Source of the DNA: Clostridia bacterium | GTDB lineage: Bacteria > Bacillota > Clostridia > Christensenellales > Pumilibacteraceae | Direction of reading: 5' to 3' | DNA: 64,000 nt | Assembly (NCBI GenBank): GCA_017500845.1 | Contig: JAFVXY010000005.1 | Location: forward strand, 57,246 to 121,245 | Shown here: piece after piece, positions 1 to 63,067 of the stretch | How the letters are laid out: every line of letters begins with the position of its first letter | How positions within the stretch are numbered: position 1 is the stretch's first letter | Made by a program: the position numbers and the translations under genes | Notes under the pieces: model-generated | What the model was told of the DNA's origin: nothing | Database searches by the model: none | Seen by the model: only the letters and a program-made list of their open reading frames with translations

Positions 1-996
1 TGCCTTGGCTACAAAAATGTTATGCTCTCTGATGCAATCAAGGACCAAACAGATAAGGTTATAAGCTTTTCTAACCTTTATTACAACGAGCTTCACTCTA
101 CTCTTGCTCAAACAATCTGCGATAAAACTCCCTTTACCAAGGTATACTTTTGCAGCAGCATAAGCGATACCCTATTTATTCTTGCGACAATGGTACGCAA
201 ATACTGTGTAGAGGCTAAGGACGAGCGTGACACTATTCTTGTAGTAACTGAATCCGAGGGTAGATACGACACCCTGCAAACGCGCGACCTTAACCTTAAA
301 ACCGTGCGCCCCGACATAACGGAATTCAAAAAAGCGCTTACCGACGACGTATGCGCGGTTATGTTCTGCCCCATTGAGGTTGAGCAAGGCGTAAGGCTTA
401 ATAAATATGAGTTCATTCTTTCCGCCTATGCACTTTGCAAGTTTAAAGGCACACTTGTGCTTTGCGACGAAACGGGCATAGGTCTTGGCAGAACAGGCAA
501 AATGTTCGCCTTCGAGCAGTACGGCGTTCAGCCCGATATAGTTTTGATTGCGCGCGGCATGGGTGGCGGTATTCCTATTGCGGCAGTGCTTTCTCGCGGC
601 GAAATCGCAACCACCCTCTCGCCGTCCGACCGTATAAACACCTCGAGCATTTCGTCCATCGCTCTTGCCACATCTCTCGTGGTAGTCGAGCGACTCAAAT
701 CGGGCATGCTTGCCGAGGTAGAAGCAAAGGGCGAATATCTTATAAACAAACTAAGCAAGCTTAAAAAGCACAACTTTATAGTGGATATTCGAGGAATTGG
801 ACTGGTTGCCGGCATAGAGCTTAAAGAAAATCTCAATGCCGCAAGAGTTGTTGGACAAATGGAAAATCTTGGCTTTTTGATTGATCAAACCAACCGCAAC
901 ACCTTGCGTATTACCCCGCCCTTTACTATTTCGGAACGCGAAATCGACAGCATGTGTGACGCATTGGCGCAAATCTTCGCACAAACAAATTTGTAA
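1..996 (+). CDS. Class-III (ArgD/GabT-like) aminotransferase homolog, 5' end cut by window edge; active-site positions degenerate
   Basis: Frame 1 is open from nt 1 (CLGYKNV precedes the tracked M at 22). Family blocks are present: SNLYYNE, CDETGIGLGRTGKMFAFEQYGVQPDIV, GGGIPIAAV, LRITPPFTISEREID. The PLP-lysine position reads LIARGMGGG (Arg, CGC at 553-555). Confidence 0.8.
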   Translation, partial: CLGYKNVMLSDAIKDQTDKVISFSNLYYNELHSTLAQTICDKTPFTKVYFCSSISDTLFILATMVRKYCVEAKDERDTILVVTESEGRYDTLQTRDLNLKTVRPDITEFKKALTDDVCAVMFCPIEVEQGVRLNKYEFILSAYALCKFKGTLVLCDETGIGLGRTGKMFAFEQYGVQPDIVLIARGMGGGIPIAAVLSRGEIATTLSPSDRINTSSISSIALATSLVVVERLKSGMLAEVEAKGEYLINKLSKLKKHNFIVDIRGIGLVAGIELKENLNAARVVGQMENLGFLIDQTNRNTLRITPPFTISEREIDSMCDALAQIFAQTNL

Positions 997-1020
997 AGTT
1001 AAAGAAAAATGTTATAACTC

Positions 1021-1051
1021 AAAAGCTCTCTTGTTTTACAAGAGAGCTTTT
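1021..1051. terminator. Bidirectional intrinsic terminator between convergent genes
   Basis: Perfect 13-bp stem AAAAGCTCTCTTG / CAAGAGAGCTTTT with a 5-nt loop. A/T tracts are built into the stem ends. Confidence 0.7.
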
Positions 1052-1054
1052 ATT

Positions 1055-1636
1055 TTAGTCGTTTGATTGCAATTTATCCAAAGATAAATAAAACGCATCT
1101 ATAAAGTTTTGCATAAAATATTGTACGCATTGCATATCCGCCTTATTAAGCGCGGCTAACTGACTTTCGAATGCGCTGTTATATTCGGGGTTGCCGGCGT
1201 TTATTTCCTCTATGCACTTGATGTATGCCGAAAGCTTGTCGGCATACTTTACCACCTTGTACTCGTCACTCGTCTTGTCGGTGATATATCCCTCCAGCTC
1301 GCACTTAAGCTCGGGCGGAAGCTGAGCAATGATTTTCTGCTCTGCCTCCGACTCAAGCTCCTTATAAGCAGTCGTAATGCTGCTATTAAAGTACTTAATG
1401 GGGGTAGGTAAATCGCCCGTAAGCACCTCGCTTGTTTCGTGATAAAGCGCAATCACGGCTGCTCGGTCGGCGTTAAGATTGCCGCCGAACAGCTTATTTT
1501 GTATTACGCACAACGAATGAGCAAGGAGTGCTACACAATGTGAATGCTCGGCAACGTTCTCGTTGAAGTTACTTCGCATAAGGCTCCACCTATTGATAAA
1601 CCTCATTCTATGCAAAAAAGCGTAAAATTTGTACAT
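1055..1636 (-). CDS. yfbR: HD-domain 5'-deoxynucleotidase (YfbR family)
   Basis: FINRWSLMR..ENVAEHSHCVALLAHSL, LYHETSEVLTGDLPTPIKYFN and KYADKLSAYIKCIEE closely parallel E. coli YfbR. ATG start at 1636. Confidence 0.9.
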   Translation of the reverse strand: MYKFYAFLHRMRFINRWSLMRSNFNENVAEHSHCVALLAHSLCVIQNKLFGGNLNADRAAVIALYHETSEVLTGDLPTPIKYFNSSITTAYKELESEAEQKIIAQLPPELKCELEGYITDKTSDEYKVVKYADKLSAYIKCIEEINAGNPEYNSAFESQLAALNKADMQCVQYFMQNFIDAFYLSLDKLQSND

Positions 1637-1639
1637 TTG

Positions 1640-3616
1640 TTAGTTGTTCTTTCCCTTTATAACCTTTTCGGTAACGGTAGCAACGTTTTGGGCAGTAAGT
1701 CCGTAGTAGTCAAACAATTTTTTTGCCGGAGCCGACTTGCCGAAGGTATCCATACATACGCAAGCGCCGTCCATACCAACGTACTTGCCCCACGACATGG
1801 ACGAGCCTGCCTCTACCGCTACTCTTGCGCGAACAGCGGACGGCAAAACGCTTTCCTTGTAGTTTTCGCTTTGCTCCTCGAAGAGTCTAAAGCACGGCAT
1901 CGATACTACGCGCACCTTAATTCCGCGTGCGTCAAGAAGCTTTTGAGCCTCAAGTGCAAGGCTAACCTCCGAGCCGCTTGCCATAATGATACCGGTAAAG
2001 TTCTTTGCATCGCTGATTACGTAGCCGCCCTTAAGTGCGTTTTCGCCGGACGAAGCAAGAATGGGCAAATCCTGTCTGGACTCGATAATGCAGGTCGGGC
2101 TGTTACCCTTAACTGCGCTGATATAAGCTGCCGCTGTTTCCTTAGCGTCTGCCGGACGGAACACGTCAAGTCCGGGCATAGCACGAAGTCCCGTGAGGTG
2201 CTCTACCGGCTGATGGGTAGGTCCATCCTCGCCTACGCCAATGCTGTCGTGCGTAAACACGTACATTACGGGGAGCTCCATCATTGCGCTCATTCTAACA
2301 GCGTTCTTCATATAGTCGCTGAATGCAAAGAAGGTGGATACGTAAGTTCTGAAGCCGCCGTGAAGCTGAATGCCGTTGGCAATAGCCGCCATAGCGTGCT
2401 CGCGAATACCAAAGTGAATATATCTGCCTGCGCCGTTCTCCTTAGAAAGCGAATCCTTGCCAAGCAATGTGGTAAGGTTAGACGGACCAAGATCCGCCGA
2501 GCCGCCAACAAGTCCGGGGATCATATCCGCAAGCTTATTAAGAACGATATGACCTGCCTTTCGGGTAGCCATCTTTTCGCCCTCGAACTCGTAAAGGCTT
2601 GCTTCGTCAATCTTTACCTTGCCGCTAAGGTCGGTAATGAGTTCCTTGTACTCGGCAGGATACTTGCTTTCGTATTCTTTAAGGAGCTTGTCGTGCTCAC
2701 ACTTGAATGCCTTTTTGCGCTCGATTATTTCTGCGTAATGTGCGCGAACCTCTTGGGGAACCTCAAACGCGCCGTACTCGTAGCCAAGCGCCTTTTTGGT
2801 TGCAGCAACGCCGTCTGCGCCGAGCGGGGCACCGTGACAAGCAGACATACCTGCTTTGGGGGAAGCGAAGCCGATTACAGTCTTTACTATAATAATGCTC
2901 GGCTTTTCCTTTTCTGCCTTAGCTTGCTGGATTGCCTTGCCGATAGCCTCGATATCCTCGCCGTTTTCTACGTAAAGCACCTGCCAGCCCATGGCCTCGT
3001 GACGCTTGCCTACGTCCTCACCAAATGTAATGCTGATGTTGCCCTCGATGGTGATGTCGTTTTTGTCGTAAAGCATAATAAGCTTGTTAAGACCAAGGTT
3101 ACCTGCAAGCGAAGCCGCCTCGTAAGCAATACCCTCTTGCAAGCAGCCGTCACCCGTAAACACGTAGGTGTAGTGGTCGATGATGTCAAGTCCGGGCTTG
3201 TTGTACTTAGCCGCAAGCATCTTTTCTGCCATAGCGAAGCCTACTGCATTTGCAATACCCTGACCAAGCGGGCCGGTGGACGTTTCAACGCCCGGGCAAA
3301 TACCGTACTCGGGGTGACCGGTGGTAATTGCGCCAAATTGGCGGAAATTCTTAATCTCGTCCATGCTTACGCCGTAACCGAAAAGGTGAAGCACCGAATA
3401 CAAAAGTGCCGAGCCGTGACCAGCAGAGAGAATAAATCTGTCCCTATCCATAAAATCAGGATGCGTGGGGTCGAATTTAAGGTGATTTGCATAAAGCTCG
3501 TACGCCATGGGAGCTGCGCCCAAGGGAAGTCCCGGGTGGCCGCTTTTTGCCGCTTCGATTGCGTCGATAGACAAAGCGCGTATTGCGCTGATAGACAACT
3601 TTTGAGTGTTATTCAC
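1640..3616 (-). CDS. tkt: Transketolase
   Basis: 658 aa with SGHPG, RDRFILSAGHGS, GPLGQGI, GDGCLQEGI and HDSIGVGEDGPTHQP motifs. GTG start at 3616 with AAGGAG 8 nt upstream. Confidence 0.97.
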   Translation of the reverse strand: MNNTQKLSISAIRALSIDAIEAAKSGHPGLPLGAAPMAYELYANHLKFDPTHPDFMDRDRFILSAGHGSALLYSVLHLFGYGVSMDEIKNFRQFGAITTGHPEYGICPGVETSTGPLGQGIANAVGFAMAEKMLAAKYNKPGLDIIDHYTYVFTGDGCLQEGIAYEAASLAGNLGLNKLIMLYDKNDITIEGNISITFGEDVGKRHEAMGWQVLYVENGEDIEAIGKAIQQAKAEKEKPSIIIVKTVIGFASPKAGMSACHGAPLGADGVAATKKALGYEYGAFEVPQEVRAHYAEIIERKKAFKCEHDKLLKEYESKYPAEYKELITDLSGKVKIDEASLYEFEGEKMATRKAGHIVLNKLADMIPGLVGGSADLGPSNLTTLLGKDSLSKENGAGRYIHFGIREHAMAAIANGIQLHGGFRTYVSTFFAFSDYMKNAVRMSAMMELPVMYVFTHDSIGVGEDGPTHQPVEHLTGLRAMPGLDVFRPADAKETAAAYISAVKGNSPTCIIESRQDLPILASSGENALKGGYVISDAKNFTGIIMASGSEVSLALEAQKLLDARGIKVRVVSMPCFRLFEEQSENYKESVLPSAVRARVAVEAGSSMSWGKYVGMDGACVCMDTFGKSAPAKKLFDYYGLTAQNVATVTEKVIKGKNN

Positions 3617-3654
3617 GATATTTTCTCCTTTTACTGTTTCTTATGTAATGGCGA

Positions 3655-5109
3655 CTATTTGGTCGCAAGTTTTTTTATTCCGTCAAGGTCAATGCCGAAC
3701 GGTGCCAAAAAGTCGCAGAGCATTGCCGCCATCTCCTTGAGTCCGCCTTCTACCTTGCTTTCGATATTTATAGGAATGATGGGGTCATGCACACTCATTC
3801 TTGCCATAAAGAAGCCCTGCTGTGTATTGACACGCACGCCCTCGTACGAGGAACTAAGATTGAATTTTTCCTTACCCCACTGCTCTAATGCGGCAAGAAC
3901 TGCCTTGCCCTTATCCTTCCAATCGTCACCGACCAGCTTAATACGCACCTCGGCCTCCTCTACGGGCATAACGAGATCGCTTATAAGGCTGTCGATTTCC
4001 TTACCCTGCTTTTTAAGCTTAACTGCATTTATCAAAAGCTTTACCGCAAGATACGCGCCGTCGTCGAGGAAGTAATTTTCCTTGAATGCGGCGTGTCCCG
4101 ACGTTTCGATTGCAAGCGGAGCGCATTTGCCCTCGGCGTTAAGTCCAACCGCAAAGTCTATAACATTGCGATATCCACGCTTGTACCTTATGTGATGACC
4201 GCCACGGCTTGCTATAAAATCAGCCAGTCCGTCGCTTGTTACCGAGTCGGTAACGATATACGAGTCGGGATATTCCTTAAGGAGTATATCCGAAATAAGT
4301 GCAATAAGTCTATTGCGGTTGATTTCTACACCCGACGAGGTAACGACAGCACTACGGTCAACGTCGGTATCGAAGATGATACCAAAGTCTGCCTTAACCT
4401 CTTTTACACGGGCAGAAATGCTTGCCATCGCATCCTTGTTTTCGGGGTTGGGCTGATGGAAGGGGAATCTTCCGTCCGGCTCGAGAAATTGTGAGCCGCT
4501 TACATCTGCGCCAAGGGGAGCCAAAATTCGGCTTGCAAAGAATCCACCTGCACCGCTACCTGCATCAACCACAATCTTGTAGCCGTCAAGTCCACCAGGA
4601 AGCTCGGCAAGAATTATACGCTTAATTTCGTCACAATAAAGACCGAGGTAATCGCCTTTGTTGATTTTACCCTCGCCGCAAAGCTTTTTCCCCTCGTCCG
4701 CATAGGTGAGAACAGTTGTAAGCTGCGAGGACGAAAGCCCTCCTTGTGTCGTAAAGAATTTGAGTCCGTTTTTGTCGGACGGATGGTGACTGGCAGTAAT
4801 CATAATTCCGCCGCCACAATTGGTTGCGTCAAACTTAGTCATCATAAAGATAGAGGGTGTCGAGCACAAGCCGCAATCAAATACCTCACAGCCGCTATCC
4901 CTCAAGGCGTTTGCAGCAATGTCCGTAAGCATTTCGCCCGTAAGACGGCTGTCGTGACCTACCGCAACTCTAAGCGGCATTCCCTGCTCCTTAAGCCAAA
5001 AGGCGAAGGCAGAGGCAATATCCGCTACAGCTTGAACCGTAAGATTGACGTTTTCTCCCATAGCGGTTCCGCGCACGTCGGTTCCGCTTTTCAGCGCAAG
5101 ATAATTCAT
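3655..5109 (-). CDS. Alpha-D-phosphohexomutase (phosphoglucomutase/phosphomannomutase)
   Basis: TASHHPSDKNG phosphoserine loop, FDTDVDR metal loop and ETSGH sugar loop. ATG with AAGGAG upstream. Confidence 0.9.
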   Translation of the reverse strand: MNYLALKSGTDVRGTAMGENVNLTVQAVADIASAFAFWLKEQGMPLRVAVGHDSRLTGEMLTDIAANALRDSGCEVFDCGLCSTPSIFMMTKFDATNCGGGIMITASHHPSDKNGLKFFTTQGGLSSSQLTTVLTYADEGKKLCGEGKINKGDYLGLYCDEIKRIILAELPGGLDGYKIVVDAGSGAGGFFASRILAPLGADVSGSQFLEPDGRFPFHQPNPENKDAMASISARVKEVKADFGIIFDTDVDRSAVVTSSGVEINRNRLIALISDILLKEYPDSYIVTDSVTSDGLADFIASRGGHHIRYKRGYRNVIDFAVGLNAEGKCAPLAIETSGHAAFKENYFLDDGAYLAVKLLINAVKLKKQGKEIDSLISDLVMPVEEAEVRIKLVGDDWKDKGKAVLAALEQWGKEKFNLSSSYEGVRVNTQQGFFMARMSVHDPIIPINIESKVEGGLKEMAAMLCDFLAPFGIDLDGIKKLATK

Positions 5110-5183
5110 ATTAGCTCCTTAGTTGATATTATAAAGACTATACCACATTTCAAAAAAAATTACAACTTATTAACGGCTAAAAG

Positions 5184-5212
5184 TTGAGTTTTTGTTAAAT
5201 ATGTGCTAATAT
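5184..5212 (+). promoter_or_regulatory. Sigma-A-like promoter upstream of nadE
   Basis: TTGAGT, 17-nt spacer, TAATAT, with TG at the extended -10 position (TGcTAATAT). Confidence 0.4.
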
Positions 5213-5262
5213 ATTTTTGCAAGGCGCACAAGCGCTATTTTATCATACAAAGGAGCGAAAAT

Positions 5263-6906
5263 ATGTCTATCGTTGTAACTCTTTGCACACCGCAAATCAA
5301 GCCGGGTGCGGTAAAATCTAACACTCAAAGTATACTTGCTTGCATCGCTAAGGCAAAAAAATCGGACGTTGTTGTTTTTCCGCGGCTGTGCATTACGGGA
5401 GCAACCTGCTCGGGAATGTTTAGTTATCCTCTCCTTACCAATGCGGCAGGTGCGGCGCTTGAGCAAATTGCGGCGGCGGGCGGCAACAAAACGGTGATAA
5501 TCGGATTGCCCACAGTAAAGGACGGAAAGGTTTTCGACTCCATTGCAATAATCAAAAACGGAACGACTGCCATATACTCGCCTAAAAAGGGCATGACCGA
5601 TATTGCCGCAAGCCCATTGTGCTACGGCGAGGACATTATTCCCGACCTTGACGAGGGCGGACTTAAGGTGCGTGTACTATCGGACATTGACGAAAAGGAG
5701 GCTATCGGCGCTGACCTTGTGATTATACCCACCGCCTACCCCACGTACATTGGCGGATTAGAGGACGTATTTAGTCGCGCAAAAATGCTTCGCTCGGTTG
5801 CTATCGTTAGCGCCGGCAAGGGTGAATCGGTAAGCGGAAAAATTATGAGTGGGGACAAAATCGTATGTACGCTTGGCAAAATTGAAGAATATGCAGGCTT
5901 CGACGAGGAATCGGTTACGGCTAAGCTGGGCGTTCCAAAGAACAAGCCCTTGCCGCCAAAGTCGCCTATGCGCGAGGTTTCACTTCTTCCGCAAAGCGAC
6001 GACGAGTGCGCCCAAATGTACGAGCTTATGGGCAGAGGCGTCCTTGGCAGAATGCGGGAAATCGGTACAGACAAGGTTATTTTGGGACTAAGTGGCGGAC
6101 TGGATTCTACCAACGTGCTGGTCGCTCTTACCATGGCGTTTGATAAATACAAGCTTGACAAAAAGAACATCATTTGCGTGACTATGCGCGGTGGTGCTTC
6201 GTCCAAGCGCACGCAAGACAACTCTGCCGCACTTATTGATGGCTATAAGGTTACATCGTACAATATTCCCATAGACGCCGCAGTTACCTTGCATATGCGC
6301 TCTATTGCTCACGAGCAAAAGGACGTCGTGTACGAGAACGCACAAGCTCGTGAACGCACCCAAATTTTGCTTGACCTAAGCAACAAGTTTAACGCCCTTA
6401 TGGTAGGTACGGGCGACTTGTCCGAAATCTGCCTTGGATTTTCCACCTTTGGCGGTGACCAGCTGAGTCAATACAACCCTAACTGCTCGATTACCAAAAC
6501 GGCTATGCGCAAAATGCTGAAATACTATACTACCACAAAGCACGCAAAGCCTGTAAGCAAAATAATTGAGGATATACTCTCTACCCCAATATCTCCCGAG
6601 CTATTAAGTGGTCAAGAAACAGAAGAGATCCTCGGGCCGTATAATATCCACGACTTTTATATTACAGAAATCGTTGCAAAGAAATTAGCACCCAAGGACG
6701 TAATGGAGGACGCCATCAACCAATTCGCCATAACTCCTCAAGCCGCCGAAAAATATATGAAGACCTTACTGAATAGACTTTTTAAGTTCCAGTTCAAGCG
6801 CAACTTCGGTCCTGACGGAGTACAGATGTTCCCATACGACCTCACTGACCTAATCGTTCGCTCGGACTTTTCTCCCGAGCTTTGGCTTGACAACTGCGGA
6901 TTGTAA
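5263..6906 (+). CDS. nadE: NAD+ synthetase with N-terminal CN-hydrolase-like domain (glutaminase residues degenerate)
   Basis: C-terminal synthetase domain with GLSGGLDS P-loop and ARERTQIL, GTGDLSE blocks. I place the start at ATG 5263, preceded by AGGAG at 5251-5255; the tracked GTG at 5203 lacks an SD. Confidence 0.9.
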   Translation: MSIVVTLCTPQIKPGAVKSNTQSILACIAKAKKSDVVVFPRLCITGATCSGMFSYPLLTNAAGAALEQIAAAGGNKTVIIGLPTVKDGKVFDSIAIIKNGTTAIYSPKKGMTDIAASPLCYGEDIIPDLDEGGLKVRVLSDIDEKEAIGADLVIIPTAYPTYIGGLEDVFSRAKMLRSVAIVSAGKGESVSGKIMSGDKIVCTLGKIEEYAGFDEESVTAKLGVPKNKPLPPKSPMREVSLLPQSDDECAQMYELMGRGVLGRMREIGTDKVILGLSGGLDSTNVLVALTMAFDKYKLDKKNIICVTMRGGASSKRTQDNSAALIDGYKVTSYNIPIDAAVTLHMRSIAHEQKDVVYENAQARERTQILLDLSNKFNALMVGTGDLSEICLGFSTFGGDQLSQYNPNCSITKTAMRKMLKYYTTTKHAKPVSKIIEDILSTPISPELLSGQETEEILGPYNIHDFYITEIVAKKLAPKDVMEDAINQFAITPQAAEKYMKTLLNRLFKFQFKRNFGPDGVQMFPYDLTDLIVRSDFSPELWLDNCGL

Positions 6907-6919
6907 AAAAAACATACAC

Positions 6920-6960
6920 AAACAGCCGTAAAGGAACCACCTTTGTGGCTGTTTTCTTTT
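6920..6960 (+). terminator. Intrinsic terminator after nadE
   Basis: Stem AAACAGCC...GGCTGTTT with inner AAAGG/CCTTT pairing, followed by TTTCTTTT. Confidence 0.7.
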
Positions 6961-6985
6961 ACGCTATTATCTTTTATCTAATGCA

Positions 6986-7020
6986 AAAGGGTGATTAAAA
7001 GACTATTTTAATCACCCTTT
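6986..7020. terminator. Perfect 15-bp hairpin (bidirectional terminator-like)
   Basis: AAAGGGTGATTAAAA, loop GACTA, then TTTTAATCACCCTTT. Confidence 0.55.
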
Positions 7021-7065
7021 ATGGAGAAAAGAGAAGAGTTATTTGTCAAGTATATAATGGCAAGT

Positions 7066-7094
7066 TTGCCATTGCTAACTCACACTCTTATAAT
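7066..7094 (+). promoter_or_regulatory. Orphan consensus-like promoter in a convergent intergenic region
   Basis: TTGCCA, 17-nt spacer, TATAAT. The palindrome ATGGCAAGTTTGCCAT (7057-7072) overlaps the -35. No CDS lies downstream on this strand. Confidence 0.3.
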
Positions 7095-7194
7095 ACTATA
7101 AAATAAGAACAATGTCAAGCAGTTAGCGGGGGCTAACTAAAAATATTTTTTATTTTTTTTCGCTTTTTTGTTTGCGAAAGTCGAATACGTGTGC

Positions 7195-57026: not shown

Positions 57027-57953
57027 TTATTTATTCTGCATTTTAGCAATTTCTTCAGCAAAATTCTCGTTCTTCTTTTCGAGACCCTCGCCCATTACGA
57101 AGCGAGTGAACTTTTTGAGAGTGATATTTGCGCCGAGCTCCTTGCCGGTCTTCTCTACAAGCTGTCTGATGGTGATGGACGAGTCCTTAGCGAATTCCTG
57201 ATCGATAAGGCAAACTTCCTTGTAGAACTTACCAAGTCTACCTACGATCATCTTCTCGATAACAGCGGCGGGCTTGCTTGCGTTCTTCGGGTCGTTAGCG
57301 ATTTGTGCGCCCAAAATTTCCTTCTCGTGCTCAACAGCCTCTGCAGGAACTTCCTCGTTGTAGGTGTACTGCGGAGCGAATGCAGCAATGTGCATTGCAA
57401 TGTCGTGGCAAACGGTATTGAAGGTAGCGTTGTCGTTGAGGTTCTTGTCGGTTTCGATATCAAGCAATACGCCGATCTTGCCGCCCATATGAATGTAAGC
57501 CTCTTCCTTGCAGCCCTCCTGTCTTACGAATCTGCGGAAGGAAATCTTCTCGCCGATCTTAGCGGTAGCTGCGGTGATAAGCTCGTTAACGGTTTCGCCG
57601 CCTACCTTGGTAGCAAGCAAAACGTCGTTATCTGCGGGATTGGTTTCTACAACTGCTTTTGCGATTGCGGTAGCGGTATCGATGAACGCATCGCTACGAG
57701 CAACGAAGTCGGATTCGCAGTTAAGCTCGATAAGCGCGCCAACCTTGCCGTCAGCGGTAGTGTAAGCAACTACTGCACCCTCGCTTGCGATACGCGAAGC
57801 CTTTTTAGCTGCAACGCTGATACCCTGTTCTCTAAGGTATTCTGCAGCCTTATCCATATCGCCGTCGGTATGGGTAAGAGCCTTTTTGCAATCCATCATG
57901 CCTGCGCCCGTTCTTTCACGGAGTGCGGCAACGTCCTTAGCTGTAAATGCCAT
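57027..57953 (-). CDS. tsf: Elongation factor Ts
   Basis: LRERTGAGMMDCKKAL UBA-like N-terminus and the EF-Ts core. Confidence 0.97.
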   Translation of the reverse strand: MAFTAKDVAALRERTGAGMMDCKKALTHTDGDMDKAAEYLREQGISVAAKKASRIASEGAVVAYTTADGKVGALIELNCESDFVARSDAFIDTATAIAKAVVETNPADNDVLLATKVGGETVNELITAATAKIGEKISFRRFVRQEGCKEEAYIHMGGKIGVLLDIETDKNLNDNATFNTVCHDIAMHIAAFAPQYTYNEEVPAEAVEHEKEILGAQIANDPKNASKPAAVIEKMIVGRLGKFYKEVCLIDQEFAKDSSITIRQLVEKTGKELGANITLKKFTRFVMGEGLEKKNENFAEEIAKMQNK

Positions 57954-58956: not shown

Positions 58957-59346
58957 TTATTCCTTATGGCAGCCGCAGTCGCAGTGGTCGCCCTCGCAGT
59001 CGCAATCTCCGTCACATTCGCCGTCGCATTCGCCATCGCAATCCTCACAGCCGCAGTCGCAATGCTCGTGAGCAGTTCTGAGATACTCCTCGAATACAGC
59101 GTTCATAAGCTCCTCGCTTTCTACGGGAACGATAAGCTGAGTTTCGTCATCCTGCTCCTCGAGCTTGCAGATAATAACCTCGTCCTCGCCGATTCCCTCT
59201 ACTTCCTCTGCGGGCGAAAGCAATACGTAAAAATTACCCTCGTGCTCTACGCAAGCTACCTCAACAAACTTGATGGGGTTGCCCTTATCATCGTAAAGAG
59301 TAATAAGCTCGTCATCGTCAAAAATTTCGCAGTTTTCGTTTTCCAT
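58957..59346 (-). CDS. DUF1292 (YrzB-like) protein with C-terminal Cys/Asp/Glu-rich tail
   Basis: The N-terminal 95 aa fit the DUF1292 pattern (ITLYDDKGNPIKFVEV....GNFYVLLSP....EVIICKL). It follows ruvX as yrzB follows yrrK in B. subtilis. The tail is CDCGCEDCDGECDGECDGDCDCEGDHCDCGCHKE. Confidence 0.85.
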   Translation of the reverse strand: MENENCEIFDDDELITLYDDKGNPIKFVEVACVEHEGNFYVLLSPAEEVEGIGEDEVIICKLEEQDDETQLIVPVESEELMNAVFEEYLRTAHEHCDCGCEDCDGECDGECDGDCDCEGDHCDCGCHKE

Positions 59347-59368: not shown

Positions 59369-59791
59369 CTAATTTTGTGCCGCCTTGATTTTGTCGAGGT
59401 ACGTTTGCAGAATAATCTGAGCCGAAATCGTGTCTACCACTCGCTTGCGCTTGTCCCAACGCATCTCCGCCTCGTCCAGAACTCGCTCCGCGCTGACGGT
59501 AGTAAGACGTTCGTCAATAAGCTCTACGGGCAAGCCGCTTACCTTGCTTAGAACTGTACCAAGCTTACGCGTCTTTTCAGCACGCTCACCCTCGCTTCCG
59601 TCCATATTAAGCGGAAGCCCAAGCACAACAAGCGTCGCGCCAAGCTCCTTTGCCTTAGCGGACAGCATATCGACGTCGCCACGCATTCCGACAGATTTAA
59701 CCGTACCTACGGGTGAGGCAATTATACCAAGTGGATCGCTTACGGCAAGCCCGATTCGAGCATCGCCATAGTCAACAGCAAGAATACGCAT
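59369..59791 (-). CDS. ruvX: Holliday-junction resolvase-like YqgF/RuvX
   Basis: MRILAVDYGDARIGLAVSD, GLPLNMDGSEG and DERLTT. Confidence 0.93.
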   Translation of the reverse strand: MRILAVDYGDARIGLAVSDPLGIIASPVGTVKSVGMRGDVDMLSAKAKELGATLVVLGLPLNMDGSEGERAEKTRKLGTVLSKVSGLPVELIDERLTTVSAERVLDEAEMRWDKRKRVVDTISAQIILQTYLDKIKAAQN

Positions 59792-59967
59792 AAATACCTC
59801 CGACTGTATTATAACACAACTTTTGCCATTTGCAAACTGATTTTGGCAAAAATTGTATATCTAATAAAAAATGTTTTGCGGATTTTTGTCACGAGCGTGA
59901 ATTTGTACAAAACCGACGTATTACAAACAAAACGCTATTTTGATTTATAACTAAAATGTCCTTTTGC

Positions 59968-60672
59968 CTAATATTCCACGCTAAAGCTAATTTCGGGATA
60001 GCCGAACGAAAGCTCTGTTTTATTTTTCGTACAGTCCCACTCACGTGTTACTACTTTGTCGTAATCCGTAAAGGATACTATCAAGCCATTAATATAGCTA
60101 TAGTTTATAGGTTTACCCGTTTCTCTATCTATTTCTATATGGCTGTAATAATACCGCAAATCGGATAAAGCAATCCCCTCGTTTGCCGCCTTTTGTTTGA
60201 ATTTTTTTATGATTGTTGCAAAGCTTTTGTACAAGCAAAAGGACACCTTGTTCATTTTCTTTTGTTTGGTTACATTAAAAAAAAGTACCTTCTTTTGCTC
60301 CTCGGTGACAATGTCCTTGCAGGTGTAGCTGGGCTTATCCGAAAAAGAGAACACCGGCGAGCTTATGTTCATTTCACGTAACGTATTTTTCCAGTTATCT
60401 CTTTCCTTTCGTAGCTCCAAATCAGTCGTATAGTATATATCCTTATGTATATCCTCTATTTTATAATATCCTTTGATGACCCTCTTGCCGTTTTCATACA
60501 AAAACTCATCTTTTTTTGCCAAATCGAGAATGTGCTTTTTTAATTGCTCCACCATTTTTTCGGCGAGATTATCAAAATATCTTTCGCCAAATTTCTCTAA
60601 TTCTTTATAAATGGCTTCGGTATCGTTACGCTTATCGGTGGTATCCTTTAACTGCTGTAAAAAATCAGACAT
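59968..60672 (-). CDS. Hypothetical protein (234 aa), no recognisable domain
   Basis: ORF with AAGGGGG SD and its own promoter. K/E/Y-rich, with no TM segment or signal peptide. Confidence 0.7.
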   Translation of the reverse strand: MSDFLQQLKDTTDKRNDTEAIYKELEKFGERYFDNLAEKMVEQLKKHILDLAKKDEFLYENGKRVIKGYYKIEDIHKDIYYTTDLELRKERDNWKNTLREMNISSPVFSFSDKPSYTCKDIVTEEQKKVLFFNVTKQKKMNKVSFCLYKSFATIIKKFKQKAANEGIALSDLRYYYSHIEIDRETGKPINYSYINGLIVSFTDYDKVVTREWDCTKNKTELSFGYPEISFSVEY

Positions 60673-60704
60673 AATGCCCCCTTCATATCATATTTTATAG
60701 CTTC

Positions 60705-60733
60705 ATTATAGCGCATAAACGTTCAAAACACAA
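60705..60733 (-). promoter_or_regulatory. Sigma-A-like promoter of the 234-aa ORF
   Basis: Minus strand: TTGTGT, 17-nt spacer, TATAAT. Confidence 0.45.
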
Positions 60734-60802
60734 GTAAATTTTGCCGCACTTCAACGCAAAAAAAGGAACGGGCTATTGGACGGGGCTTTTGCGGAAAATT
60801 TT

Positions 60803-60849
60803 TAACCAAAACAAAAAGTCATTACAAGATTTTTCCAATAATGACTTTT
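60803..60849 (-). terminator. Intrinsic terminator after the 253-aa/45-aa bicistron
   Basis: 11-bp stem AAAAGTCATTA/TAATGACTTTT with a 14-nt loop, followed on the minus strand by TTTTGTTTTGGTT. Confidence 0.75.
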
Positions 60850-60870
60850 CTTTTGTGTCAATGCCGTATT

Positions 60871-61008
60871 TTACCACGGCTTATTCTTCTTTTTTTCCTC
60901 TGCGCGTTTTTTTGTATAATATCCTATAATAGCCGCCCTTTGCTTTTTCTTTGCTTCGGGGGTTCTAGCCTTGACGTATTTTCCTTTTCCAAGAGGTTTC
61001 TTTCTCAT
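60871..61008 (-). CDS. Untracked 45-aa hyper-basic peptide, translationally coupled to the upstream regulator gene
   Basis: MRKKPLGKGKYVKARTPEAKKKQRAAIIGYYTKKRAEEKKKNKPW (18 K/R, 3 E). Its ATG overlaps the upstream TGA (ATGA). GAGGAGG lies 7 nt upstream and the terminator follows. Confidence 0.6.
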   Translation of the reverse strand: MRKKPLGKGKYVKARTPEAKKKQRAAIIGYYTKKRAEEKKKNKPW

Positions 61009-61766
61009 TTTAGTTCCTCCTCATAAGAAATAACAGTATCGTATTCTTCATTTTCGTAGTATTGCTGTAATAATTCAACTAATTTATTACTTGGCTTGTA
61101 TTTCCTTTCAACCACGTACGAATCTCTTATCATACATAGCGGTATTGCTCCAATGACTCTGTTTGTCAAATCATATCCAAGCAAATAATTGCTTTGGTCA
61201 TAAGTAAAGCCGTAAACATAATGAAAGGCAAACATTCTGATTGATTTACCGTTTACGGTAGCGTGAAATATTTTTCCCGTTTCGCAAGCTTCAGCATAAT
61301 TATATAGCTCTTCGTCGAATGCTAACGCTTCCCTTTCGTATTGCGGAAGTCTTGAATATTCGTTCAAGAGTCCACGGATATATTCGGTCGTAGTTTGTCC
61401 CGTTATCTTTGTTTCGGATTGTTCAATCTCGTCAAACACAGCGTTTTGCTTCGTTGACGGTCTGAACCATATAACTTCCTCTAAATCTTGCAGTTCTGCA
61501 TCTGAAAAATACACTTTGTCTATTACCGTGTTTACGCACTCGTAAATTCTTTCAGTATCATCTCTTGCAAAGTCCTCGCTTAATATTCTATGTATTTCAT
61601 CGCGCCGCGACTTGCGAAAATGCAATAAATTAGGTATTAGCTTATTTAGGAGTCTGTTCAGATTAGGCTCTTTCCCCTTTTTTAAGAAACCAAACTTTTC
61701 AGCATCGTTTTGAAGAATACAAAGCACAAAATCCGACACGGATAACTTTATAATGGACGAAATCAT
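61005..61766 (-). CDS. Putative RHH-like / WYL-like transcriptional regulator (253 aa)
   Basis: The N-terminus IIKLSVSDFVLCILQNDAEKFG...EPNLNRLLNKLIPNLL fits a strand-helix-helix pattern. The C-terminus IRMFAFHYVYGFTYDQSNYLLGYDLTNRVIGAIPLCMIRDSYVV resembles the WYL-domain pattern (x-YL-x-GY ... R-[IL]-D/R-x). This is a motif-level call only. Confidence 0.6.
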   Translation of the reverse strand: MISSIIKLSVSDFVLCILQNDAEKFGFLKKGKEPNLNRLLNKLIPNLLHFRKSRRDEIHRILSEDFARDDTERIYECVNTVIDKVYFSDAELQDLEEVIWFRPSTKQNAVFDEIEQSETKITGQTTTEYIRGLLNEYSRLPQYEREALAFDEELYNYAEACETGKIFHATVNGKSIRMFAFHYVYGFTYDQSNYLLGYDLTNRVIGAIPLCMIRDSYVVERKYKPSNKLVELLQQYYENEEYDTVISYEEELK

Positions 61767-61783
61767 CTCATCACCTCAACAAT

Positions 61784-61918
61784 ATTTTACACTATGTAAA
61801 CCCAAATGTCAACTATTTAAGAATAAATATGATGTTTTGTAAACCCAAAATGAAAAAACATAGATGCTATTATTTTTAATTTATTCGTGATATAATCTTC
61901 TTGCAAGACAAAGTCTTG
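61784..61918. promoter_or_regulatory. Divergent control region: two promoters, a 14/15-nt direct repeat x2, and a 6-3-6 palindrome
   Basis: Minus strand: TTGACA (61812-61807), 17-nt spacer, TAAAAT (61789-61784). Plus strand: extended -10 TGATATAAT (61888-61896). Repeats TGTAAACCCAAATG (61795-61808) and TGTAAACCCAAAATG (61838-61852). Palindrome CAAGAC-AAA-GTCTTG (61904-61918). Confidence 0.55.
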
Positions 61919-61945
61919 ACATAGCTCAAAGGAGGTGATACAATT

Positions 61946-62257
61946 ATGAATAAGAAGCCTTACAAGCAGTTTTACCACGGAAAAGGGATTACAAATAAGC
62001 AGTTTGGACAAAAGCCTATGAAATGGTTTCCGTGGACATACCTTGATACATATAATGCCAAAACGGGAAAATTCCGTTCTAGAAGAAAATTCGGTTCTGA
62101 TGGTTGGGCATACAAGGATATGGACACCGCAGACAATCATAAACCCTACGACCACGTACACGACATACGCAAGGGCTATAGATTTGATGATAGAAAGCCG
62201 AACAAAGCAGAAAAGAAAGAATTCAAAAAAGCAAAAAAGAAAAGGAGATTTTTATAA
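61946..62257 (+). CDS. Small highly basic protein (103 aa), candidate toxin
   Basis: AAAGGAGGTG SD. About 30 K/R residues, with the segment GKFRSRRKFGSDGWAYKDMDTADNHKPYDHVHD and the tail KKEFKKAKKKRRFL. Confidence 0.72.
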   Translation: MNKKPYKQFYHGKGITNKQFGQKPMKWFPWTYLDTYNAKTGKFRSRRKFGSDGWAYKDMDTADNHKPYDHVHDIRKGYRFDDRKPNKAEKKEFKKAKKKRRFL

Positions 62258-62526
62258 TGATTGATTTAACAAAATATAATATTGATGATGACGATGTTCA
62301 TTTTCTTTTGCAAACCGAAGATTGGTGTATTAACGGACAGAGTGAAATAATTTTGGAATACAAAGGTAAATCCTTTGTTTTAGAGCCTCACGGTAAAGCT
62401 GTACGAGTTTATGCGTACGGTGAAGCTTTAGGAGATTATGAAAACTTTGATGATTTGTTGCTTAATTATAAAATAGACGACAAACCTCTCATTGAATTGA
62501 TAAAAGATTTGGAATACGGAGATTAA
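62257..62526 (+). CDS. Small acidic protein (89 aa), candidate immunity/antitoxin partner
   Basis: The ATG overlaps the upstream TAA (TAATG). About 21 D/E versus about 8 K/R. Confidence 0.72.
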   Translation: MIDLTKYNIDDDDVHFLLQTEDWCINGQSEIILEYKGKSFVLEPHGKAVRVYAYGEALGDYENFDDLLLNYKIDDKPLIELIKDLEYGD

Positions 62527-62836
62527 ATATTTATTTTTGACAAAAGAGCAAGCCGCATTTGACTAGTTAAATGTAAATGGACACGAACTCATATACAACT
62601 AAAAAAGAAAGCAAATCGGTTCGTAGCCAAAATGCTCTCTCTTTCTTCTGTTTGTAAAGCTTTTGCCGGCGCATAAGTGAAATTATGTTTTCCACTTCGC
62701 CGATGGCAAAAATTCATTGCTCACAGGATAATTCCACTTACTAAGTAAGCTTAACCTGCCCGTAAGTGCAAATTTAGTTATGCGTGTTCTCCGTTTTGGA
62801 TAACACGCTAAGCTGTTCCCTTTTTTGTTTTAAGTA

Positions 62837-63067
62837 CTACAATCCGTTGTTTTCGGGCTGACATTCACAGCCGCTGAAGCTACTTGCCGATTTATTTTCG
62901 CCGCAATCGCAGCCGCACTCACAGCCGCTGTTGTTGCTACTCATAACCGACTCCGCCTTGGACTTAATGTCGTCAACAACCTTTTCCGCCTTGGGGCACA
63001 TCTTAACCAAGAACATGCCGCCCACAAGTCCTAATCCTACGCCTAACGTAAAAGCAGTCTTAAGCAT
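62837..63067 (-). CDS. 76-aa single-pass membrane protein with C-x-C cysteine tail
   Basis: AAGGAGG SD. N-terminal Gly-rich TM helix (LGVGLGLVGGMFLV). Tail GCECGCDCGENKSASSFSGCEC. Immediately downstream of nifS-nifU. Confidence 0.72.
   Translation of the reverse strand: MLKTAFTLGVGLGLVGGMFLVKMCPKAEKVVDDIKSKAESVMSSNNSGCECGCDCGENKSASSFSGCECQPENNGL

Follow-up and report, generated by a model that had tools for sequence, protein, structure and literature searches.

A conserved overlapping gene pair in gut Clostridia, a probable stand-alone toxin-immunity module related to polymorphic-toxin cassettes

The gene pair

Within a 64,000-nucleotide stretch of a Clostridia bacterium genome (Christensenellales, Pumilibacteraceae; GenBank assembly GCA_017500845.1, contig JAFVXY010000005.1, forward-strand positions 57,246 to 121,245), here called the window, lie two small overlapping genes that encode a basic protein of 103 amino acids (aa) and an acidic protein of 89 aa. 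An initial annotation, made from the sequence alone, proposed that the two form a toxin-immunity pair, and we refer to them as the toxin and immunity genes in the sense of that proposal. The features of the pair, in window coordinates, are:

61946 to 62257, plus strand: toxin gene, 103 aa, from ATG at 61946 to TAA at 62255-62257
62257 to 62526, plus strand: immunity gene, 89 aa, from ATG at 62257 to TAA at 62524-62526
62242 to 62247, plus strand: Shine-Dalgarno sequence (SD) of the immunity gene, AAGGAG, encoded by invariant K-R-R codons of the toxin tail

The list of open reading frames (ORFs) and the sequence bear out the layout first described. The toxin stop and the immunity start are fused in TAATG with one base common to both genes, and the toxin gene has a strong SD, AAGGAGG, at 61929-61935, 10 nt upstream of its ATG. 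The first protein, said to hold about 30 lysine and arginine residues, has 30 of them together with 11 aspartate and glutamate residues (isoelectric point, pI, 10.2), and the second is as strongly acidic as claimed (21 D+E, 8 K+R, pI 4.2).

Both ORFs are genuine conserved genes, paired in every locus examined. Homologues number 109 for the 103-aa protein (102-108 aa in nearly all cases) and 150 for the 89-aa protein (88-91 aa in nearly all), and the two sets occur on common contigs. The pair is adjacent in 30 of 30 related loci (numbered with the prefix L; 9 from look-ups of the encoding contigs and 21 from species-representative genomes), a toxin gene being followed each time by an acidic ORF of 78-94 aa from the 89-aa family; where tblastn missed the immunity ORF, it was recovered by direct ORF inspection. 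The hosts are all metagenome-assembled genomes (MAGs) from gut samples of deer, human, rabbit and other origin, and belong to uncultured Clostridia, Christensenellales or Candidatus Scatosoma. In contigs assembled from bovine gut metatranscriptomes, a single RNA of close relatives runs from the toxin body over the junction through the immunity gene; the two genes are thus transcribed together.

Across the 15 loci that could be read at the junction, stop and start codons overlap or lie only a few bases apart, and the immunity SD AAAGGAGA is found within the last toxin codons in 14, the remaining locus having AAAGGAGG. Given that the SD lies inside toxin codons and that the genes overlap in TAATG, translation of the immunity gene is probably coupled to that of the toxin gene. 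The invariance of KKRRF in the toxin tail would therefore be in part a constraint at the nucleotide level. One locus, from a Hadza gut Clostridia MAG (L020, 4716-5030), carries a toxin homologue with an in-frame TAG at codon 16 beside an intact immunity gene, as expected if the toxin is costly. Several toxin homologues in the databases are only 73-84 aa long and start near the position of Met25. These short versions and the L020 stop could be decay of the toxin or a shorter form made of the core only.

Relatives of the 103-aa protein

A family profile of the 103-aa protein was run by HMMER against 1.84 billion representative proteins. It recovers about 60 stand-alone relatives and, with weaker scores (E 1e-5 to 1e-3), a set of larger proteins in which the domain always occupies the extreme C-terminus. 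These carriers include phage MuF/SPP1-gp7/minor-capsid-2 proteins (P0296, P0305, P0309, P0321, P0286), an Rhs-associated core protein (P0314; TIGR03696, 1.5e-16) and a PG_binding_1 protein (P0318). When the stand-alone family is aligned with the C-terminal domains of 28 carriers, hhalign returns a probability of 99.8% (E 1.4e-27), the matched part of the carriers being their C-terminal ~70 residues. Both forms have in common the motif PNS-x-D ... G ... RR-x-(F/Y)-G-x-(D/N)-G ... D-x-D ... H-x-H. Judged by these alignments, the 103-aa protein shares homology with the C-terminal domains of polymorphic toxins.

Genomic context bears out the identity of the carriers as polymorphic toxins. Behind a full Rhs-barnase/barstar pair lies P0314, an orphan toxin with an Rhs core; at L012 (1-4268; CP188820.1), a full-length Rhs protein with a barnase-type Ribonuclease C-terminus and Barstar form the Rhs locus and are followed by an orphan Rhs-core bearing the toxin domain and by a 73-aa immunity ORF. 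The MuF carrier genes are placed between portal and scaffold genes. Two cultured phages carry complete pairs: gp25 of Paenibacillus phage Tadhana, annotated as a toxin, consists of a PT-TG pre-toxin domain and then the toxin domain, with gp26 as its partner, and gp30 of Clostridioides phage phiCDKH02 is a MuF protein with the toxin domain at its end, with gp31 as its partner. A further candidate, P0287, was considered as a toxin-immunity fusion and dropped, its C-terminal part not being significantly similar to the 89-aa protein by BLASTP.

The initial annotation had likened the central segment GKFRSRRKFGSDGWAYKDMDTADNHKPYDHVHD (residues 41-73) to modules of LXG/Rhs-type toxins and had proposed looking for the 103-aa sequence at the C-terminus of larger toxins. 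It is found there, on MuF, Rhs-core, PT-TG and PG_binding_1 carriers; no LXG or WXG carrier was seen among the carriers found. Homologues in phage structural proteins had been named as an outcome that would speak against a toxin. Formally such homologues exist, the MuF proteins; what they have in common with the 103-aa protein is their toxin extension, not the structural MuF domain.

The AlphaFold2 model of the 103-aa protein (predicted local distance difference test score, pLDDT, 87; predicted template modelling score, pTM, 0.75) has seven beta strands and one C-terminal helix. Its core comprises residues ~25-85, in which D34, G41, R46, R47, G53, D58, D60, H70 and H72 are conserved; D58, D60, H70 and H72 are invariant, Y36 is nearly so and Y68 is not. 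Outside the core lie a 24-residue N-terminal extension and the K/R-rich C-terminal helix; the tail of the protein reads KAKKKRRF. In BFVD the model matches Siphoviridae minor-capsid and phage proteins (template modelling score, TM, 0.59-0.61; probability 1.00); searches of PDB sequences with single sequences and profiles gave nothing relevant for it. Among the PHROGs there is a weak match of its C-terminal part to phrog_18811, annotated as toxin.

The acidic partner

The 89-aa protein is predicted with high confidence as a small alpha+beta fold (pLDDT 95). The model has no credible match in a fold search of the PDB, PDB sequence searches gave nothing relevant, and among the PHROGs it matches phrog_3711, of unknown function. 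No helix-turn-helix (HTH), ribbon-helix-helix (RHH) or AbrB match was found in the protein, nor any match of its fold to a DNA-binding one. Its family is marked by the C-terminal motif F-x-s-x-D/E-L-L-x4-I-x-G-K-x-L-x-E-L.

The same motif is present in the small acidic ORFs that follow the carriers: 73 aa behind the Rhs orphan, 75 aa behind the PG-binding protein, 82 and 86 aa behind two MuF proteins, and in Tadhana gp26 and phiCDKH02 gp31. Aligned with the 89-aa family, the carrier-associated ORFs score an hhalign probability of 94.5% (E 7e-8), with hmmsearch values of 1e-16 and 8e-10. One and the same partner family thus accompanies the toxin domain across four carrier architectures, and this constancy is the strongest computational argument that the 89-aa protein serves as cognate immunity protein. 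Divergence of toxin and immunity protein is correlated over 18 loci (r 0.82, to which phylogeny contributes), and the immunity protein diverges faster, with a mean identity of 41% compared to 58% for the toxin at these loci; such a difference is typical of immunity proteins. Computationally, therefore, the idea of a toxin-immunity pair is upheld by the carrier toxins and by the immunity relatives that follow them; taken as a whole, the initial proposal is supported in part.

Likely chemistry of the toxin domain

Two described toxin families bear on what the domain might do. Ntox24 (PF15529) is an all-beta domain with conserved Y, H and H for which a metal-independent RNase activity has been guessed, and Ntox24-like domains were predicted to occur in toxin-antitoxin (TA)-like modules as well (Zhang et al. 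2012, PMC3482391). No experimental work on Ntox24 was found in the literature searched. In a consistent register (profile positions ~17-74), 8 of the 28 carrier C-terminal domains match Ntox24 below threshold; the MuF/Rhs domains score about 11.8-21.2 bits, the best E being 6.3e-5, where the gathering score is 24.

The second family is PT7, which with PIM7 forms a pair in Bacillus cereus (PDB 8owu); PT7 is a 78-aa Mg-dependent non-specific DNase of new fold (bioRxiv 10.1101/2021.10.19.465003), and its toxicity is abolished by D37A, H47A and H73A (10.1101/2021.10.19.465003 and supplement). When our toxin model is compared with 350,542 PDB chains, 8owu_B and 8owu_C rank first and second (E 0.5-0.6, probability 0.77-0.84; TM 0.40-0.44 by Foldseek). 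Both PT7 and the toxin model also resemble the beta domain of SdgB/TarM, and PT7-type sequences were recovered from Bacillus plasmids. The PT7 stretch R-I-D-x-P-D-K-V-T-K-Y-D-H-V-H aligns at identical spacing with K-D-M-D-T-A-D-N-H-K-P-Y-D-H-V-H, giving the common motif D-x2-D-x4-Y-D-H-V-H and placing D37 of PT7 on the invariant D60 and H47 on the invariant H70. By hhalign the probability of the match is 56% with a single sequence and 25-36% with a 4-sequence profile, the register being unchanged throughout (P about 1e-4 to 8e-4). The toxin domain may be a remote relative of PT7. Given that PT7 is a proven Mg-dependent DNase, this points to the chemistry of the toxin, and the extreme basicity and K/R helix of the 103-aa protein fit a nucleic-acid substrate. 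We lean, by a little, towards a nuclease acting on DNA or RNA.

Several observations count against the two comparisons. The link to Ntox24 stays below threshold and holds for the relatives rather than for the 103-aa family itself, as neither the 103-aa protein nor any of 23 family members matches Ntox24 at E<=5. The link to PT7 is weak (Foldseek E 0.5, TM 0.40-0.44, hhalign 25-56%); the MuF/Rhs subgroup aligns with PT7 at a probability of only 1-2%, and HMMER profiles of the toxin do not find 8owu at E<=10. The 103-aa family has no histidine beyond H72, and the essential H73 of PT7 is therefore left without a counterpart.

The cassette and its control region

The pair belongs to a larger unit, whose remaining features are:

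59800 to 62800, no strand: low-GC island in the composition profile (GC ~0.35, flanks ~0.48)
61005 to 61766, minus strand: gene of a 253-aa acidic protein, candidate DNA-binding regulator, with 335 homologues, divergent from the toxin gene
60871 to 61008, minus strand: 45-aa basic ORF (18 K/R, pI 10.6), overlapping the stop of the 253-aa gene
59968 to 60672, minus strand: 234-aa ORF in the island, unrelated to the cassette
61784 to 61812, minus strand: promoter-like site of the 253-aa gene, TTGACA-17-TAAAAT (consensus scan 11/12), its position kept in the intergenic alignment
61795 to 61806, plus strand: first copy of an operator-like direct repeat, TGTAAACCCAAA, within the spacer of the promoter of the 253-aa gene
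61838 to 61849, plus strand: second copy of the operator-like repeat, TGTAAACCCAAA, at a distance of 43 nt from the first
61888 to 61896, plus strand: extended -10 element of the proposed promoter P1, TGATATAAT, read from the sequence (the two-hexamer scan does not call P1)
61904 to 61918, plus strand: 5'-leader hairpin CAAGAC-AAA-GTCTTG, which folds in the window
61916 to 61944, plus strand: hypothetical nested promoter P2, TTGACA-17-TG-n-TACAAT (11/12 matches plus TG)

The island is bounded by ruvX (59369-59791, minus strand) and by a small Cys-rich ORF and iscU-nifS. Within it, the 253-aa gene adjoins the toxin gene in 18 related loci and is absent from more distant ones, and tblastn places the 45-aa ORF, with 54-92% identity, immediately behind the 253-aa gene in 15 related loci. 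On this conservation the 45-aa ORF is a genuine micro-protein of the cassette; it has no Pfam match. Where the toxins are closer (at least 57% identity) the pair is preceded by both divergent genes, and both are missing at the distant pairs L004-L009, L030 and L033-L037. The 234-aa ORF is kept with the cassette in none of the related loci. The cassette lies between rlmL and glnA in L001, between ruvX and iscU in the window and by rpsB in L029, and these differing chromosomal sites together with the low GC suggest that it is horizontally mobile. In L004-L007 (JGI/ENA contigs, 1-7100), the pair comes directly after three large genes and has an HTH gene and an rve transposase behind it; the large genes encode a 1057-aa protein with Flg_new repeats and proteins of 621 and 712 aa without Pfam match. 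This may be a different, surface-protein-associated context.

As for the 253-aa protein, the initial annotation had spoken of a divergent WYL-like regulator. A divergent, conserved gene is present; the WYL assignment finds no Pfam or PDB match. More broadly, neither Pfam, NCBIfam, PHROGs nor PADLOC gives a match, none of the 335 homologues has a Pfam domain, and PDB sequences are matched neither by the single sequence nor by a 27-sequence profile; an RHH-like N-terminus and a WYL-like C-terminal beta region (residues ~165-225) are impressions by eye. The argument for regulation comes from the DNA. The 179-bp divergent intergenic region is unusually conserved and contains the two direct repeats, TGTAAACC(CAAA). 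The 253-aa proteins form a second clade (~53% identity), where the sequence of either repeat is TGTCTACC and an inverted copy, GGTAGACA, is present in addition. Because the repeats co-vary with the two clades, the 253-aa protein is probably a DNA-binding regulator of the cassette.

Downstream of the repeats, the P1 element TGnTAnAnT occupies the same alignment position in 14 of 14 loci; with its predicted start at ~61903, P1 would give the toxin-immunity mRNA a leader of ~42 nt. The stem of the leader hairpin is lengthened by compensatory sequence elsewhere, CAAGGTAA/TTACCTTG in L032 and CAAGGAA/TTCCTTG in L028. The pattern of P2, CTTGAC(A/T)-N17-TGATATAAT, is an extended sigma-A pattern kept in 14 of 14 loci. 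The -10 of P2 directly adjoins the toxin ATG, and the toxin SD falls within the P2 spacer, so transcripts from P2 would begin at about codon 2-3, would not hold the toxin start codon and would encode the immunity protein only. This conservation is ambiguous, since CTTG is also the 3' arm of the hairpin and an AU-rich stretch between SD and ATG is expected in any case. At L017, the closest locus, the two longest contigs from four bovine metatranscriptomes start at +24 and +36 from the ATG, and one of them stops 7 nt beyond the immunity stop; the ATG and leader are uncovered and the 253-aa gene is covered. These are assembled contigs of 7-10x depth, not reads, and contigs may break at boundaries that are conserved or variable; their starts fit P2 weakly. 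Whether P2 is a real promoter we would rather doubt than affirm.

Rfam and tRNA scans of the island gave nothing above threshold. A sub-threshold match to the Glutamine-II riboswitch of Rfam (60717-60780, plus strand; 23.4 bits, gathering score 33) lies between the 234-aa and the 45-aa ORF and is probably due to chance. An element of ~45 nt at 62757-62812 (and 62706-62780, minus strand), just 3' of a minus-strand Cys-rich ORF, reaches a contig depth of 176-764x in four gut DNA runs, with 2-6x around it, and overlaps a sub-threshold match to the Gut-1 RNA of Rfam (28 bits, gathering score 50); it looks like a short sequence common to many abundant gut organisms. Two small Cys-rich ORFs flank the island, both on the minus strand: one at 58957-59346, of 129 aa, ends in CDCGCEDCDGECDGECDGDCDCEGDHCDCGCH, and the other at 62837-63067, of 76 aa, has one hydrophobic helix and CECGCDCG...GCECQ motifs.

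Proposed mechanism and alternative explanations

Taken together, the pair is probably a stand-alone toxin-immunity module that derives from polymorphic-toxin cassettes or has common ancestry with them. In the mechanism we propose, the all-beta domain of the 103-aa protein, with D58, D60, H70 and H72 plus R46/R47, would act as a nuclease. The 89-aa protein, made from the same mRNA through translational coupling, would neutralise it by binding directly across the basic face of the active site. A horizontally acquired cassette of four genes would house the pair in this lineage, and the 253-aa protein would control toxin-immunity transcription by binding the TGTAAACC repeats that flank the divergent promoters. 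The toxin would act on its producer when immunity runs short, as in a regulated addiction or abortive-infection module. An intracellular role of this kind, which the initial annotation had suggested too, is our best guess, tentatively held, on the grounds that the toxin has no trafficking domain, carries its own expression signals and is accompanied by a dedicated regulator. In a more elaborate version, gut Christensenellales would have domesticated the nuclease domain of a polymorphic toxin, with the 253-aa protein as a sensor-regulator that gates P1, the sole source of translatable toxin mRNA, and with P2 as a constitutive supply of immunity only. We consider this version rather unlikely; if true, the P1/P2 layout would be a new wiring for a silent but inducible toxin, for instance in abortive infection.

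Some findings tell against the module as described. At cut-off, neither protein matches Pfam, NCBIfam or PADLOC, in single-sequence and family-wide scans of both, and none of 22 members of the 89-aa family has a Pfam match. Nor does the pair fit a classical type II TA system with autoregulation, since no DNA-binding domain is detectable in the immunity protein. No mobility gene was found, and no empty site was seen in four gut DNA runs, whose fragmentary contigs gave no informative joint. Finally, the conserved N-terminal 24 residues and K/R tail of the toxin could be an export or packaging signal.

A question follows, does the toxin act inside its producer or elsewhere? The pair might be an exported interbacterial weapon, delivered by a phage particle, a T7SS-like (type VII secretion) system or lysis with the N-terminal 24 residues or the K/R tail as signal, or else a spare cassette, a source of recombination for MuF, Rhs or PT-TG carriers whose immunity protein shields the producer and its kin. 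All larger relatives of the domain are delivered toxins (MuF, Rhs, PT-TG), PT7 likewise exists as a 78-aa stand-alone ORF and as a PT-TG/LXG fusion, and in L004-L007 genes of large surface-type proteins precede the stand-alone gene, with a transposase close by; the extension and tail are conserved though they lie outside the catalytic core, and fast divergence of immunity is seen in competition systems too. Yet the toxin gene, unlike typical orphan cassettes, comes with an SD and a start codon of its own and with a conserved promoter region, and what accompanies the pair is a dedicated regulator, not a secretion gene. A search of the 64-kb window for the domain, not aimed at carrier domains as such, gave no second copy; there is no shared pre-toxin sequence, and the stand-alone form is carried by no IMG/VR viral contig and no INPHARED phage. 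We regard export or a spare cassette as unlikely. The label of orphan cassette itself was rejected; orphan cassettes lie downstream of a full-length toxin gene, share pre-toxin sequence and usually have no translation signals of their own, whereas this gene has its own translation and transcription signals and its neighbours are regulator-like and housekeeping genes.

It is improbable that the 103-aa protein is instead a non-toxic nucleic-acid binder (a histone-like protein, regulator or packaging factor without catalysis) and the 89-aa protein its chaperone or a DNA mimic. Such a role would suit the extreme basicity and the K/R-rich C-terminal helix, the absence of a curated toxin model at cut-off and the weak PHROG match, and the tolerance of an in-frame toxin stop in L020 and of shorter homologues. 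However, the invariant Asp, His and Arg residues form a compact motif in stand-alone and fused forms alike, which resembles an active site more than a surface for binding DNA; toxin-immunity pairs are typically recognised by just such a strict association with an acidic partner that evolves fast; and toxin nonsense beside intact immunity looks like decay of a toxin gene. That the ORFs are chance or mis-called frames is a thought prompted by the AT-rich island and its many short alternative ORFs on both strands; with more than 100 full-length homologues of conserved length for each, confident structure predictions (pLDDT 87 and 95) and RNA contigs, we reject it as having next to no likelihood.

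Comparison with known systems

Among the closest described systems are the polymorphic toxins of MuF type that temperate phages carry (Jamet et al. 2017, PMC5576092). In phiCDKH02 the C-terminal ~90 residues of gp30 match our toxin profile (E 8e-24), and the 82-aa gp31 that follows matches the immunity profile (E 8e-10). As in our pair, the immunity gene of MuF systems abuts or overlaps the toxin stop codon. On the one hand, the MuF domain is the tail of a head-morphogenesis protein of ~460-520 aa encoded beside the portal gene and presumed to be packaged or injected; on the other hand, the protein described here has 103 aa, its own start codon, 24 extra N-terminal residues and the KAKKKRRF tail, and it resides in a chromosomal cassette with a regulator.

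Like type II TA systems, the pair is bicistronic, with a small toxin and a small partner on one RNA, here with the toxin first; it differs in that the 89-aa protein has no detectable DNA-binding domain and regulation is probably exerted by the separate 253-aa protein. In this it resembles omega-epsilon-zeta of plasmid pSM19035, a three-component TA system with a separately encoded regulator that binds promoter direct repeats. Here too the antitoxin or immunity protein has no DNA-binding domain and transcription is apparently under a separate repeat-binding protein. The putative regulator in our cassette is, however, a 253-aa protein, divergently encoded and accompanied by the 45-aa basic ORF, and the toxin is unrelated to zeta kinases.

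As modelled, the toxin resembles Ntox24 in its all-beta make-up and conserved His, and both have MuF and Rhs carriers; Ntox24 occurs on T7SS carriers as well, and it is partnered by Imm50 or Imm53, to neither of which the 89-aa protein belongs. PT7 is likewise a small all-beta toxin, either stand-alone or at a PT-TG C-terminus (also fused to LXG), with an acidic immunity protein next to it. PIM7 is unrelated to the 89-aa protein: against PIM7 sequences the immunity alignment gives an hhalign probability of 0.1%, and PIM7 is absent among the top 50 fold matches listed.

What was known already is that polymorphic-toxin C-terminal domains come with immunity proteins and that stand-alone, TA-like versions exist, as anticipated for Ntox24 in 2012. 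To this, the work adds two families that had no annotation, one of toxins and one of immunity proteins, linked across stand-alone, MuF, Rhs and PT-TG contexts, as well as a four-gene cassette with an operator that co-varies and a possible nested promoter. As it stands, it is a solid gain in annotation rather than a new principle. Should the regulatory layout hold (separate regulator, immunity SD embedded in the toxin gene, nested promoter), it would be of interest for the regulation of TA and defence systems, and the toxin domain is a possible bridge between Ntox24 and PT7, a Mg-dependent DNase of solved structure. The pair offers a concrete example of the 2012 prediction that Ntox24-like domains occur in TA-like modules, and both of its domains are common to chromosomal cassettes of gut Clostridia, to MuF toxins of Clostridioides and gut phages and to the PT-TG and Rhs toxins of Paenibacillus phages and other bacteria.

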